From Euzebyales bacterium (GTDB taxonomy: Bacteria; Actinomycetota; Nitriliruptoria; Euzebyales; JAHELV01): 64,000 nt of DNA. A program made the position numbers and the translations under genes. Shown piece by piece: positions 10,986 to 62,098 of the stretch. Location of the stretch: the NCBI GenBank assembly GCA_035461305.1, contig DATHVN010000076.1, positions 667-64,666 of the forward strand, given 5' to 3'. Every line of letters begins with the position of its first letter. Position 1 is the first letter of the stretch. Under the pieces are notes generated by a model. It had not been told where the DNA came from and made no database searches. It saw only the letters and a program-made list of their open reading frames with translations.

Positions 10986-11669
10986 ATGTCCCGGAGAGAC
11001 CACCTGCGCATCTCGGACGCGTGCCACGTTCTCGGCATCAGCCGGTCCACACTGCTGGCCGCGGAGGAGGCGGGCCTCATCACGGCCGGGCGAACCCCGG
11101 GCGGCCACCGCCGGTTCGCCCGTGAGGAGCTCGAGCGCTACCTCGCCACGCACGGCGGGTCGGCGTCGTCCGACGACCCCGTAGCGCACCGGCCCGGCGC
11201 CGGTCCCGGCCGCGAACGCGTGGCCACCGACCTGCGCATCGCACTGCGCGAGCTCGTCCAGCTGGTCGACGCCACCTGTGCCGGCGTGTACCTGCTGGAC
11301 CACGACCGGCTCGCCTACTGCGCGGGCTTCGGCATCCCCCGCTGGCAGGCGGACAGGCTGCTGTCCACCGCACCCCCAGACGCGGTGGTCAGCGCACTGG
11401 GTACCAGCCGGCTGCGCATGGTCGACGCCACCGGCGTCGTTTCGCGACCCCGGGGCGGTCAGGCCGTCACCCTGCCGATGCTGTCGGACCGCACACCGCT
11501 CGGCGTGCTGTTCGTCGTGGGGCGCGCCGGCCACGAGCTGCTGCCGGGTGAGCTGCGGATCATCGCCGCGGCGCAGCGGATGCTCGCGCTGCTCGTCGAC
11601 CGCCTGCAGCGACTCGCGGATCTGGAGCGACGGCTCAGCGGCGTGCGGGATCTGGCTGCGTCGTCGTGA
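10986..11669 (+). CDS. MerR/excisionase-type HTH regulator with a C-terminal GAF-like domain
   Basis: N-terminal HTH (LRISDACHVLGISRSTLLAAEEAGLI..GHRRF). The C-terminal ~140 aa follow a GAF-like pattern (..GVYLLDHDRLAYCAGFGIP..LGVLFVVGRAGHELLPGELRII..). Confidence 0.6.
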   Translation: MSRRDHLRISDACHVLGISRSTLLAAEEAGLITAGRTPGGHRRFAREELERYLATHGGSASSDDPVAHRPGAGPGRERVATDLRIALRELVQLVDATCAGVYLLDHDRLAYCAGFGIPRWQADRLLSTAPPDAVVSALGTSRLRMVDATGVVSRPRGGQAVTLPMLSDRTPLGVLFVVGRAGHELLPGELRIIAAAQRMLALLVDRLQRLADLERRLSGVRDLAASS

Positions 11670-11692: not shown

Positions 11693-12922
11693 TCAGGTGG
11701 ACCGTTCGTGCAACGCAGAGGTCCCCCGCAGGTGCCCACGTGGACCGCCGAGGCTGCGGACGAAGTCCGGCGGGATGACGAGGTCCTCCCTGGACAGCTC
11801 GTGGATCGACGACCGCCGCAGACCCATCAGGGCGGAATCGAGGCCGTTGCGCAGGATGTCCAGCACGTTCTCGACCCCGGCCTGGCCGTTGGCCGCAATG
11901 CCCCACAGGTACGCCCGGCCGATGAGCACCGCCTTCGCTCCCATCGCGAGGGCCTTCAGGACGTCGCTGCCTCGCCGGATGCCACCGTCCATGAGCACCT
12001 CCACGTCGTGGCCGACCGCGTCGACGATCGCGGGCAGGGCCCGCAGCGACGCGGGAGTGCCGTCGAGGTTGTTGCCACCGTGGTTGGAAACCGAGATGGC
12101 CGTCGCACCTGCGTCGACCGCGGCCTTGGCGTCGTCGAACCGCATGATGCCCTTGACCATGAACGGTCCGCCCCACTGCTCGCCGAGCCATCGGATGTCG
12201 TCCCACGTCGGCTGCGGCGTCTGCATCCACTCCCCGTACGCGCCGAAGAACGTCGGCTCGGGCTGACCAGGCACCTGCATGTTCGGCACGGTGAGCGCCG
12301 GCGGGTGCAGCGTCCTCGCGTAGTCCATCAGGTAGCGGAACTTACCGCCCAGGATCACCTCCGGCGCGTACCGCAGCATGGTCCGCACGTTCATCTCCGA
12401 CGGGATGGCAGGACTGCCCCAGTCGCGGGCGTGCGAGAACGACCAGTCCAGGGTGACGATCAGGCCCACGGCGCCGGCCCGGCGCGCACGCTCGACCCGG
12501 TAGGCGATGTCGTCCCTCGATCCCGACCAGTAGGTCTGGAAGAAGGTCTGCGGATTGGCCTCGACGACCTCCTCGACCGGCCTGCTGCCGAAGGCGCCGA
12601 GTCCAATCGGGACGCCGCGGTTCGCGGCCGCGCGCGCGACGGCCACCTCGCCTTCGGGATGCACGGCCTGCACGCCTGTGGGCGAGATCATCACCGGCAT
12701 CGACCACGGCTGCCCCATGACGGTGGTGGACTGATCGCGCGCCGCGGGCAGATCCACGATGTGGGGGGCGAGTTCGATCTCGCTGAACGCCCGCAGGTTG
12801 TCGCGTAACGTCGTGCCCTGCTCCGACCCCGCGACCAGAGCCATGTACACCGACCGCGGAAGCCTCCGCCTGGCTCGCCGTCGCGCCTCGAGCACGGTCT
12901 CGAACCAGTCGCTGGCCATCAT
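11693..12922 (-). CDS. mftD: FMN-dependent alpha-hydroxy-acid dehydrogenase family, pre-mycofactocin synthase MftD-like
   Basis: Start at ATGATG 12922/12919 after AGGAGAGGG. MASDWFETVLEARRRARRRLPRSVY.. N-terminus and ..ISVSNHGGNNLDGTPASLRALP..DGGIRRGSDVLKALAMGA..GRAYLWGIAANGQAGVENVLDIL.. track my recollection of mycobacterial MftD (LldD-like). Confidence 0.8.
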   Translation of the reverse strand: MMASDWFETVLEARRRARRRLPRSVYMALVAGSEQGTTLRDNLRAFSEIELAPHIVDLPAARDQSTTVMGQPWSMPVMISPTGVQAVHPEGEVAVARAAANRGVPIGLGAFGSRPVEEVVEANPQTFFQTYWSGSRDDIAYRVERARRAGAVGLIVTLDWSFSHARDWGSPAIPSEMNVRTMLRYAPEVILGGKFRYLMDYARTLHPPALTVPNMQVPGQPEPTFFGAYGEWMQTPQPTWDDIRWLGEQWGGPFMVKGIMRFDDAKAAVDAGATAISVSNHGGNNLDGTPASLRALPAIVDAVGHDVEVLMDGGIRRGSDVLKALAMGAKAVLIGRAYLWGIAANGQAGVENVLDILRNGLDSALMGLRRSSIHELSREDLVIPPDFVRSLGGPRGHLRGTSALHERST

Positions 12923-12932
12923 CCCTCTCCTG

Positions 12933-13118
12933 TCAGGGTCGAGGCGTGGGGCGCTCGCGGAGTCGTCCTGGCGCGAATGTAACGGCACAAGGGCCGTCCG
13001 ACAGGCCATCGACATCGCGGTACCCGGGGGCGGCTGGACGCTTCACCGAGCCCTGACAGGCGGAGGACAGCAGACGTCCTACGCGGTCCTTCTCGCCATC
13101 TGATATCGGTCCCAGCAT
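12933..13118 (-). pseudogene. Speculative 3' stub of an upstream operon gene (possibly an mftC remnant)
   Basis: 61-codon ORF ending 10 nt before the mftD-like start. Its Cys-containing tail (..SSACQGS..DGPCAV..) is only weakly reminiscent of a SPASM C-terminus, and low-GC non-coding-looking DNA begins immediately upstream. Confidence 0.2.
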
Positions 13119-13441
13119 TCGTCACAATAGAAGCTGGGGGTTGCGTTCTTGCACTTGGGGGTTATGCAACGACGTAATGAGATGATTACGTCCTGCTTCT
13201 TCGTTGCGCGCCGCCGGAAGCGTTTCATCTACTTACTCTCTCAAGCTGATGGCCCCTCATCGGTATGTACCTTCCCATGCTCCTTGATTACCGGATCAAG
13301 AGCAGTCGTCGAACGCCGCAACATGACGCCGATTTCGCGATCGGCCGCCGCTGCGACGTATCAACAGTGACACGTTCATAATTGATCAGTGTGACCATCG
13401 CGACACTTCTGCGCAAATCGCCGCTGATCCGACAGATGGAC

Positions 13442-13634
13442 TTATCCACAATGCCGCTGACCTGCAGAATCCACAGCAAACGCCGGCTTGTGCACATGCC
13501 CGTCCACAGGTGCGCTCGCTGATTTCCACAGAAGCCGCCCGCAATCCACAGATTCTCTGAGCAATTCACAGGTGGATCGCCCTGCGCCGGTGACGATCCA
13601 CGCCTGCTGGCGGCCGTGCCGGCCCGTGGATCCG
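13442..13634. other. Array of DnaA-box-like 9-mers (candidate origin or DnaA-binding locus) at the edge of a low-GC island
   Basis: Same-orientation boxes: TTATCCACA 13442-13450 (perfect E. coli-type consensus), GAATCCACA 13467-13475, TTGTGCACA 13488-13496, CCGTCCACA 13500-13508, ATTTCCACA 13522-13530, CAATCCACA 13542-13550, CAATTCACA 13562-13570, CGATCCACG 13594-13602. Inverted copies: GCGATCCACC (13571-13580) and CGGATCCAC (13626-13634). Spacing is mostly 20-25 nt. Confidence 0.55.
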
Positions 13635-14080
13635 TGCGTACCATCGTGGCGATGGCACTCCTGGGCAACCTCCTGTGGCTGGTGCTCGCCGGCTGGTGGG
13701 TGGCGCTGGCCTACGTCGTCGCGGGCATCGTGAACTTCGTGACGATCATCGGCATCCCGTTCGGCATCCAGGCGTTCAAGCTCGCCGGGTACGCGTTGTG
13801 GCCGTTCGGGCGCGTCGTCGTGACCACCGATACGGGCTACGGACCACTGGCCATCATCGGCAACGTGCTCTGGCTGATCCTGACCGGCTGGGAGCTGGCC
13901 CTGGCCCACGTCGTGGCGGGCCTGCTGCTGTGCCTGACGATCGTCGGGATCCCGCTCGCGATCGCGAGCTTCAAGATGGTCTGGCTCGCCCTCGTGCCGT
14001 TCGGCAAGGAGGTCGTCCCCGCGTCGGCCGTGCAGCCCGACGCGAGCGTGTTCCACGGCGGCGTGCAACCACGGACGTGA
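13634..14080 (+). CDS. yccF: YccF-domain inner membrane protein (DUF307)
   Basis: GTG 13634 (VRTIVAMALLGNLLWLVLAGWW..) parallels the E. coli YccF N-terminus. Two repeats of the IIGIPFGIQAFKLA / IVGIPLAIASFKM motif. Confidence 0.75.
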   Translation: MRTIVAMALLGNLLWLVLAGWWVALAYVVAGIVNFVTIIGIPFGIQAFKLAGYALWPFGRVVVTTDTGYGPLAIIGNVLWLILTGWELALAHVVAGLLLCLTIVGIPLAIASFKMVWLALVPFGKEVVPASAVQPDASVFHGGVQPRT

Positions 14081-14185
14081 CCCGCCGCGACCCGACGTCA
14101 GTCGCCAGCTCGGCGAACACGACGACGTTGTCCTCCCCCTGTTCATCGCCGTGCGTCGGGGCTACGCTGAGCGTGGGAGTGAAGC

Positions 14186-14599
14186 ATGAAGGACTACCTC
14201 GTCGTCGCCAACCAGACGCTCGGAGGCACGAAGCTGCTGGAGGAGCTGCGGCGTCGCGTCGCACAGGGTCCCTGTCGCCTCCACCTGGTCGTACCGGCCA
14301 ACGTGCGGGGCGAAGGGTGGACCCACACCGAGAGCGAGGCGTATGAGATCGCCAGGAAGCGACTCGACGAGGCCATCGAGCGCTTCCGTGAGCTCGGCGT
14401 CGAGGTCGAGGGCCAGGTGGGCGACGAACGTCCGCTCGACGCCATGCGAGATGCGATGCGCAGGGTCCCGTGCGACGAGATCATCCTGTCGACCCTGCCC
14501 AGAGGGGCGTCGCGGTGGCTGCGGATGGACCTGGTAGCCCGCACCGACCGCACCTTCCCTGTCCCGGTGACGCACGTCGAGGCCACCGAGGACGTGTGA
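14186..14599 (+). CDS. Conserved actinobacterial hypothetical protein (USP/adenine-nucleotide-alpha-hydrolase-like pattern)
   Basis: ATG follows GGGAGTGAAGC. MKDYLVVANQTLGG..LHLVVPA..IILSTLPRGASRWLRMDL..PVTHV matches a recurrent actinobacterial family I recognise only as hypothetical. Confidence 0.6.
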   Translation: MKDYLVVANQTLGGTKLLEELRRRVAQGPCRLHLVVPANVRGEGWTHTESEAYEIARKRLDEAIERFRELGVEVEGQVGDERPLDAMRDAMRRVPCDEIILSTLPRGASRWLRMDLVARTDRTFPVPVTHVEATEDV

Positions 14600-59835: not shown

Positions 59836-59970
59836 TCATGCGGCGGGTTCGAGGGTGACGCGGTAGCCGAGGGCTTGGAGCTGGCGGACGTGGTTGTGGG
59901 TGAGTGTTCGCGGGTGATGCGGGTGTCGTGGTAGTCGGCGCCGAGATCGTGGTGGCGGGCGTCGTCCACA
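59836..59970 (-). mobile_element. Short frameshifted remnant resembling the C-terminus of an actinobacterial IS transposase
   Basis: The minus strand reads ..DDARHHDLGADYHDTRI, shift, ..HNHVRQLQALGYRVTLEPAA*. This is the ..LG-DY..R..V-QL-ALGY-VTL-PAA ending I associate with transposase annotations. No inverted repeats identified. Confidence 0.3.
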
Positions 59971-60022
59971 GATGACGACCCAGCATCGCGCCCGGTGCCC
60001 CACACCGGTCTACCCTCCGACC

Positions 60023-62098
<2,076 letters not shown>

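Follow-up and report, generated by a model that had tools for sequence, protein, structure and literature searches.

A Conserved Seven-Box Array Upstream of an Overlooked Small Gene in Euzebyales: a Candidate DnaA-Responsive Promoter

In Bacillus subtilis, DnaA activates the sda gene directly, by way of eight DnaA boxes, and the product of this gene is a small, unstable protein (PMC4447404); at low concentration, ATP-DnaA binds the sda region about 50-fold better (PMC4447404). More generally, DnaA-box clusters (DBCs) that lie outside oriC bind many DnaA molecules and can affect both initiation and nearby genes (PMC3245932, PMC4447404). Apart from a few model organisms, the action of DnaA as a transcription factor is poorly understood, as is the coupling of replication status to other processes in actinobacteria. 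The subject here is an island of low GC content at 13100-13634 of a 64,000-nt stretch of DNA (the window), which belongs to a metagenome contig of 80.8 kb (ENA ERZ27272640, k141_64915) whose source record at NCBI is entitled "MAG TPA: Euzebyales bacterium". The island carries seven 9-mers of the DnaA-box type, and these lie upstream of a small gene that had been overlooked. It is proposed that a promoter in the island responds to DnaA, the presumed ligand of the boxes, and drives the gene of a new small protein, in analogy to sda; this proposal is judged about as apt to be right as wrong.

The basic observation, a cluster of boxes within an island of low GC content, was made in a preliminary description of the window and is confirmed here. 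As had been described, the GC content falls sharply between the flanking genes mftD and yccF, to 0.570 at 13100-13634 vs. 0.710 for the window; in 100-nt steps across 13100-13600, it goes down to 0.50-0.61, and the earlier tally of 28 GC pairs in the 60 nt at 13141-13200 was reproduced. In large part, this low GC content is due to the small gene and its upstream region. Eight 9-mers in the same orientation had been reported. The common orientation holds, but the count does not, since only seven are solid boxes (13442-13570, plus strand). The comparison set used to judge them consists of eight sequences, which represent six lineages read as DNA; P0128 is known only as a miscalled open reading frame (ORF).

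All seven 9-mers end in CACA on the plus strand and have 0-3 mismatches to the DnaA-box consensus, TTATNCACA (PMC4447404). Box 1 (TTATCCACA, 13442-13450) is a perfect match to this consensus, and in the other lineages it reads CTGTCCACA, CTATCCACA, TTATGCACA, or TTGTCAACA. Next along the plus strand are box 2 (GAATCCACA(G), 13467-13475) and box 3 (TTGTGCACA, 13488-13496); across lineages, box 3 is TTGT[G/A/T]CACA, with variation at consensus position 5 only. Box 4 (CCGTCCACA(G), 13500-13508) is a weak box that begins 12 bp after box 3. The array is completed by box 5 (ATTTCCACA(GAA), 13522-13530), box 6 (CAATCCACA(G), 13542-13550), which has the same letters in all eight sequences, and box 7 (CAATTCACA(GG), 13562-13570), which marks the distal limit of the conserved module. 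From box 1 to box 7, the start-to-start distances in the window are 25, 21, 12, 22, 20, and 20 bp, and the "three boxes at exactly 20 nt" of the preliminary description are boxes 5, 6, and 7. Between boxes 1 and 2, where the spacer is widest, there is a conserved element that is not a box (CTGACCTGC, 13457-13465, plus strand; GCAGGTCAG on the minus strand). Within this spacer TGACC(T/A)GC is kept in eight of eight sequences, and the element may be a site for a second factor.

This cluster is not a product of chance. Among the 28 copies of TCCACA in the whole window (both strands), five lie in the array, on a single strand and within a span of 106 bp. When same-strand copies of TNCACA were counted in 140 bp, the array gave seven, compared with a maximum of three in 1.19 Mb of actinobacterial loci that lack the module and a maximum of four in 5000 dinucleotide shuffles of the island. 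Elsewhere in the window, three TCCACA occur in 190 bp at 61426-61617, on mixed strands and within a 727-amino-acid (aa) ORF (59918-62098); these were judged to be a chance grouping.

Beyond box 7, the sequence is unrelated between lineages. In the window, this lineage-specific spacer (13572-13633, GC content 0.74) contains three box-like pieces outside the conserved module: GTGGATCG at 13572-13579, GATCCACG at 13595-13602, and GTGGATCC at 13626-13633. The first and the last of these are the two inverted copies noted previously. They are indeed present, but they are not conserved; all three pieces are found in the window and in contig L056 and are missing from L144 and L149.

In the direction of the small ORF, the module consists of boxes 7 to 1, with the non-box element between boxes 2 and 1, and then GATTTGC, CACACT, a leader, and the small ORF, and the sequences align with almost no gaps. 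The spacings from box 7 to box 1 in all eight sequences are 20-21, 20-21, 21-23, 12, 21, and 25-26 bp. Every readable contig with a more distant homologue of the small ORF (L150-L152, L153-L154, L155, and L165) has the array upstream of that homologue, in the same orientation. Among contigs that carry a YccF homologue, L056-L060, L144, and L149 have the whole island, and L061-L063 and L145-L148, in which YccF is 82-86% identical, have no part of it. Relatives of YccF in GTDB representative genomes and in metagenomes, all at 68% identity or less, have no array upstream. The neighbors differ from one lineage to the next: mftD and yccF in the window and L056, a PolX-like gene and yccF in L149, a TIR-domain gene and PolX in L150, a HAD hydrolase and a histidine phosphatase (HAD/His_Phos_1) in L153, an S8 peptidase in L165, and an FHA-kinase in L155. 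Because these neighbors change while the array and the small gene stay together, the conserved unit is the array plus the small gene. On the evidence of these comparisons, yccF and mftD are incidental neighbors of the array. The possibility that yccF is the regulated gene was considered and rejected, given that there are yccF loci at 82-86% identity without the array and that the array is also found without yccF.

The preliminary description recorded the boxes but missed the unannotated gene whose upstream region they occupy. The gene, at 13079-13228 on the minus strand, consists of 49 codons plus a stop and encodes MKRFRRRATKKQDVIISLRRCITPKCKNATPSFYCDECWDRYQMARRTA, with a CX4C...CX2C arrangement of cysteines; it was not called in the source annotation. 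When the islands are aligned, their left part is also conserved and reads as a minus-strand ORF of 48-49 codons. Changes within it are nearly all synonymous, with a ratio of nonsynonymous to synonymous difference (pN/pS) of 0.02-0.05 at a synonymous difference (pS) of 0.49-0.77, which identifies the ORF as a real protein-coding gene and one under strong purifying selection. Homologues are present in L056, L144, L149, L150, L153, L155, and L165, and a profile search found four distant ones with 47-58% identity. Members of the family have 47-50 residues, a basic N-terminus, and four invariant cysteines (CX4C-X8-CX2C) within the invariant pattern C-I-x3-C-x-N-x-T-x-SFYCD-x-CW. Profile searches of Pfam, NCBIfam, and the PDB revealed no relatives of the protein, and its AlphaFold model is unreliable (predicted local distance difference test [pLDDT], 54).

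When 1.84 billion representatives were searched exhaustively with a profile of the small protein, only three true clusters came to light. In part, this scarcity arises because gene callers miss the small ORF, as has happened to the copies in the window and in L056. P0128 provides a further case. This 269-aa miscalled ORF has the translated array as its N-terminus and the small protein as its C-terminus, and the translation of its array (LWI...LWT...LCTT...LWI...IVDK) matches the array spacing. The true small gene is thus systematically missed or miscalled. In two lineages, a PolX-family DNA polymerase/PHP gene lies 3' of the small ORF on the same strand (L149, 2-358; L150, 5577-7310), and in other lineages mftD or a histidine phosphatase gene occupies this position. 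The presence of polX downstream in two lineages offers a weak hint of a connection with DNA transactions or DNA repair.

Between the array and the small gene, a promoter-like element is conserved. A predicted -35 hexamer, TTGCGC (13411-13416, minus strand), lies within the block GATTTGC, which is invariant in eight of eight sequences. It is followed by a predicted -10 hexamer, CACACT (13388-13393, minus strand), which elsewhere is CACAAT, CACTAT, or GAGACT. The gap between the two hexamers is exactly 17 bp in all eight sequences. From the -35 hexamer to box 1, the distance is 25 bp in seven sequences and 15 bp in L155, the most divergent lineage. The 10 bp by which L155 is shorter correspond to one helical turn, and the rotational phase is therefore kept. 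Judging from this conservation and from the consensus, TTGCGC-17-CACACT is probably a weak promoter of the sigma-70 type, from which transcription would start near 13382 on the minus strand. The boxes would then lie at about -60 to -190 relative to the predicted start, upstream of the core promoter. A promoter scan with Escherichia coli rules found no promoters.

The leader of about 150 nt that this start implies (13229-13381, minus strand) has a GC content of 0.54. Seven sequences have 145-161 nt between the -10 hexamer and the ATG, and L155 has 254 nt. Conserved within the leader are GGGGCCATCAGCTTGAGAGAGTAAG, immediately before the ATG, and GATCAATTAYGAACG, at the 5' end. Just 3' of the predicted -10 hexamer, the leader also contains a conserved (G)GAAC-N16-GTC/GTT, which is clearest in L150 and L165 and could, with low confidence, be a second promoter of the extracytoplasmic function (ECF) type that provides a stress-responsive start. 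A terminator scan, again with E. coli rules, found a single weak hairpin, which is inside the small ORF. A role of the array at the level of RNA was tried and rejected: the RNAalifold covariation term is +0.17, and only 1 of 30 pairs is compensatory. An Rfam scan of 12500-14200 returned noise only.

Which protein binds the boxes has to be judged from their pattern. In a position matrix of 49 boxes, position 1 is C or T, position 2 is T or A, position 3 is A or G, and position 4 is T in 48. Position 5 is free (C in 35, T in 8, G in 4, A in 2). Positions 6 to 10 are C (46), A (49), C (49), A (48), and G (37). Across the six lineages, identity is 0.90 at box positions 4-10, 0.70 at positions 1-3, and 0.50 in the spacers, and the boxes have persisted although synonymous change in the adjacent gene is close to saturation (pS up to 0.77). 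The strength class of each box is also kept across lineages, boxes 1, 3, and 5 being near-consensus and boxes 2, 4, 6, and 7 being without TT. In actinobacteria, the DnaA box takes the form TTGTCCACA (PMC4285127, Table 1), and the A or G at position 3 covers both this form and that of E. coli and Bacillus. An invariant T, a free position, and an invariant CACA make up the pattern of TTATNCACA and TTGTCCACA alike, which points to DnaA as the likeliest ligand of the boxes; this assignment is considered reasonably probable. Functional DnaA boxes with up to three mismatches have been documented in B. subtilis (PMC4447404).

These findings lead to a model for the locus. DnaA, probably in its ATP form, would bind first to the near-consensus boxes 1 and 3 and would then load the weaker boxes 2, 4, 5, 6, and 7 cooperatively, on one face of the helix; most of the boxes are about two helical turns apart, and all have the same orientation. 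The resulting one-sided nucleoprotein complex would be in phase with the promoter and would aid RNA polymerase at what is a poor promoter, so that the amount of the small protein would track the activity of DnaA. As a by-product, about seven DnaA molecules would be held away from the origin.

Several points weigh against this proposal. Five of the seven boxes lack the TT at positions 1-2 and have two or three mismatches to TTATNCACA, and the conserved G at position 10 lies outside the 9-mer consensus. The R1 and R4 boxes of E. coli also carry a G at this position. The consensus itself is taken from other bacteria and may not be the preference of DnaA in this clade. As a promoter, the predicted -10 hexamer is without the usual first T, and the ECF-like motif lies just downstream. 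The choice of activation is drawn from the position of the boxes and the weakness of the promoter, and DnaA may instead repress at the predicted promoter. Finally, the strict co-occurrence of the array and the small ORF would be explained equally well if the small protein bound its own upstream region.

This last point belongs to another explanation, doubtful but serious, in which the array is the operator of a protein other than DnaA. Such a protein might be the small Cys4 protein, binding for autoregulation as at an operator of the centromere or iteron type, or else an actinobacterial response regulator of the MtrA/PhoP type. Among the sequences compared, the array and the small ORF are always together and occur nowhere else, and the basic N-terminus of the small protein would suit a DNA-binding role. 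The frequent G at position 10 (37 of 49 boxes), the absence of TT from most boxes, and an extra conserved element, TGACCTGC, between boxes 1 and 2 would likewise fit a ligand other than DnaA. However, while the protein diverges to about 50% identity, the boxes do not change along with it, and neither profile searches nor the AlphaFold model (pLDDT 54) allow a DNA-binding family or fold to be assigned to it. As for MtrA, whose half-site is GTCACAGCG (PMC4285127), the TTCACAG of box 7 matches GTCACAG at six of seven positions (PMC4285127). Nevertheless, the overall pattern is that of TTATNCACA and not that of GTCACAGCG, in that a T followed by any base stands where MtrA has G-T. Furthermore, regulators of the OmpR family use paired repeats about 11 bp apart, whereas only boxes 3 and 4 are this close (12 bp) and the others are 20-26 bp apart. 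Alternatively, DnaA could be the ligand and the effect on the gene secondary, with the array serving mainly as a locus that titrates, inactivates, or reactivates DnaA (like datA, DARS, or the DBCs) and tunes the timing of initiation. The seven conserved boxes of graded strength would suit such a locus, an architectural protein might occupy the non-box element between boxes 1 and 2, much as IHF binds at datA, and the six DnaA-box clusters outside oriC in B. subtilis are known to restrain initiation jointly (PMC3245932). What makes this distinctly unlikely is the fixed distance and the kept phase between the array and the promoter-like element, which argue for transcription as the selected function, together with the constant link to one small gene while all other neighbors change. 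In addition, there are no conserved inverted boxes, unlike the DARS core. Such a non-origin DnaA locus of the datA or DARS kind had been offered in the preliminary description as an alternative, and it comes close to the view favored here; the origin and the integrated replicon that had been offered beside it are not supported.

A chromosomal replication origin, main or secondary, at a non-canonical place was the principal suggestion of the preliminary description. It was prompted by a DnaA-box cluster in a low-GC intergenic island, and the position of dnaA beside oriC is not universal among bacteria (PMC4285127). The window has no dnaA, parA, or parB signature, as had been stated, the DnaA query having been an approximate sequence; their absence itself speaks against an origin. 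Given the orientation of the boxes, any unwinding element should lie past box 7, as in the layouts of E. coli (R1 and the DNA unwinding element) and B. subtilis (box 6/7 and the DnaA-trio). There, however, the flank is GC-rich (0.74 in the window) and is not conserved. The best AT-rich 13-mers in the six lineages have 10 of 13 A/T and differ in position between lineages, and no run of at least four trio-like triplets was found on either strand in any of the six with a loose, self-made pattern. The side of the array that is conserved holds a promoter-like element and a protein-coding gene. Cumulative GC skew shows no turn, and gene strand no switch, at 13 kb, 64 kb of high-GC DNA being a weak basis for either. 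The surroundings of oriC show conserved synteny (PMC4285127); different neighbors in each lineage are the opposite of this and count against an origin. Taken together, these results leave an origin, main or secondary, very improbable; this reading is not supported and is largely refuted. The remaining earlier suggestion, that an integrated plasmid or phage left its iteron origin here, is barely credible. Seven direct repeats about 21 bp apart beside a perfect DnaA box do resemble an iteron replicon, in which direct repeats lie beside a DnaA box, but there is no rep gene, and the adjacent conserved gene has 49 codons only. Moreover, conservation is limited to 8-10 bp per unit, with spacers that are 50% identical, and the neighbors are ordinary chromosomal genes, with no integrase or att features. 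Searches with tblastn and blastn gave no matches in 72,556 plasmids and 50,697 phages, and no relative was found in IMG/VR. A two-box pattern scan of IMG/VR yielded nine matches, none of them related to the module. Two of the matched contigs have dense clusters of DnaA boxes, L159 at about 900-1095, in both orientations, and L162 at about 1010-1200, with a CTT/CTA-rich run and then AT-rich DNA beside the boxes. These clusters look like fragments of bacterial origins or DnaA-box regions borne by phages or plasmids.

The genes that flank the module in the window are those named previously, an mftD-like gene and yccF. The mftD gene (11693-12922, minus strand) matches TIGR03966 with 667 bits, compared with a cut-off of 471, and lies 3' of the small ORF on the same strand. 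Its leader contains a 17-nt inverted repeat (12922-12938 and 13051-13067, 82% complementary) through which the ribosome-binding region would base-pair with a segment upstream of it, in a region that is highly conserved in L056. The fold of this leader is not significant (z = -0.67), and the leader has no Rfam match. Adjoining mftD and two short-chain dehydrogenase genes is a 227-aa protein (10986-11669) with a helix-turn-helix of the excisionase/MerR type and a weak, sub-threshold match to the GAF domain; this protein may regulate the mycofactocin-linked genes locally. On the other side, yccF (13639-14080 including its promoter, plus strand) is identified as YccF by both Pfam and NCBIfam. It has a probable leaderless promoter, TACCAT at 13639-13644, before an ATG at 13652. 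TACCAT also precedes the ATG of yccF by 6-7 nt in the array-less loci L061 and L146. The annotated start, a GTG at 13634, is probably 18 nt too early.

What appears to be new here is the unusually rigid, conserved geometry of a DnaA-box cluster and its promoter, coupled to a new family of small proteins in a poorly studied order of actinobacteria. The module is a natural test case, in that seven graded sites have kept their spacing and their promoter phase as the surroundings diverged to saturation. Through it, the rules that govern the geometry of DnaA oligomers on double-stranded DNA outside the origin become testable. The small protein, conserved, without a family, and missed by gene callers, is a candidate for a new cell-cycle factor. 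It may be speculated, quite tentatively and by analogy, that it is a novel effector of the replication cycle in actinobacteria of the Euzebyales type, and that its transcription is set by active DnaA via the phased seven-box array. Such an effector might act on division, on DNA repair, or in feedback on DnaA, as an independently arisen counterpart of Sda. There is also a lesson for annotation: a DnaA-box cluster and a low-GC island are insufficient to call an origin.

The locus can finally be set beside the systems that it most resembles. In its box type (TTGTCCACA or TTATCCACA) and in having many boxes in an intergenic region of lower GC content, it is like the oriC of actinobacteria such as Mycobacterium and Streptomyces (PMC4285127). 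With the MtrA boxes of Mycobacterium, which are direct repeats of GTCACAgcg, it has the CACAG core in common, and promoters related to replication are among those at which MtrA acts (PMC4285127). MtrA sites differ, however, in being paired repeats with G and then T 5' of CACA, where here there is T and then any base. Plasmid iterons, too, are repeats in a single orientation, about 20-22 bp apart, that stand next to a DnaA box and precede a gene; iterons, however, conserve the whole unit and adjoin the gene for a Rep initiator, and the array does neither. Like DARS1 and DARS2 of E. coli, it is a short DnaA-box cluster outside the origin. A DARS core comprises three boxes that do not all point the same way, in contrast to the seven conserved boxes in a single orientation seen here, where neither inverted piece (13572 and 13626) is conserved.

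Non-origin, intergenic clusters of DnaA boxes are also represented by the DBCs of B. subtilis, datA of E. coli, and the clusters of Streptomyces, and to this extent the array is like them. The datA locus needs an IHF site and promotes the hydrolysis of DnaA-bound ATP, and the Streptomyces clusters lie near oriC. In contrast to these, the array is bound up with one particular small gene and accompanies it to different places in the chromosome. The closest comparison is with sda, where likewise about seven DnaA molecules bind. The proteins themselves have no sequence relation, and Sda has no Cys4 motif. The host here is an uncultured actinobacterium of the Euzebyales, an order in which we know of no description of sporulation. 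The arrangement of the boxes also differs from that at sda, in that all seven have one orientation, a spacing kept within 1-2 bp, and a fixed phase to the promoter. Nevertheless, in both cases multiple DnaA boxes (eight at sda, seven here) lie upstream of a gene for a very small protein, and the proposed logic is the same: the level of the small protein would report the activity of DnaA.

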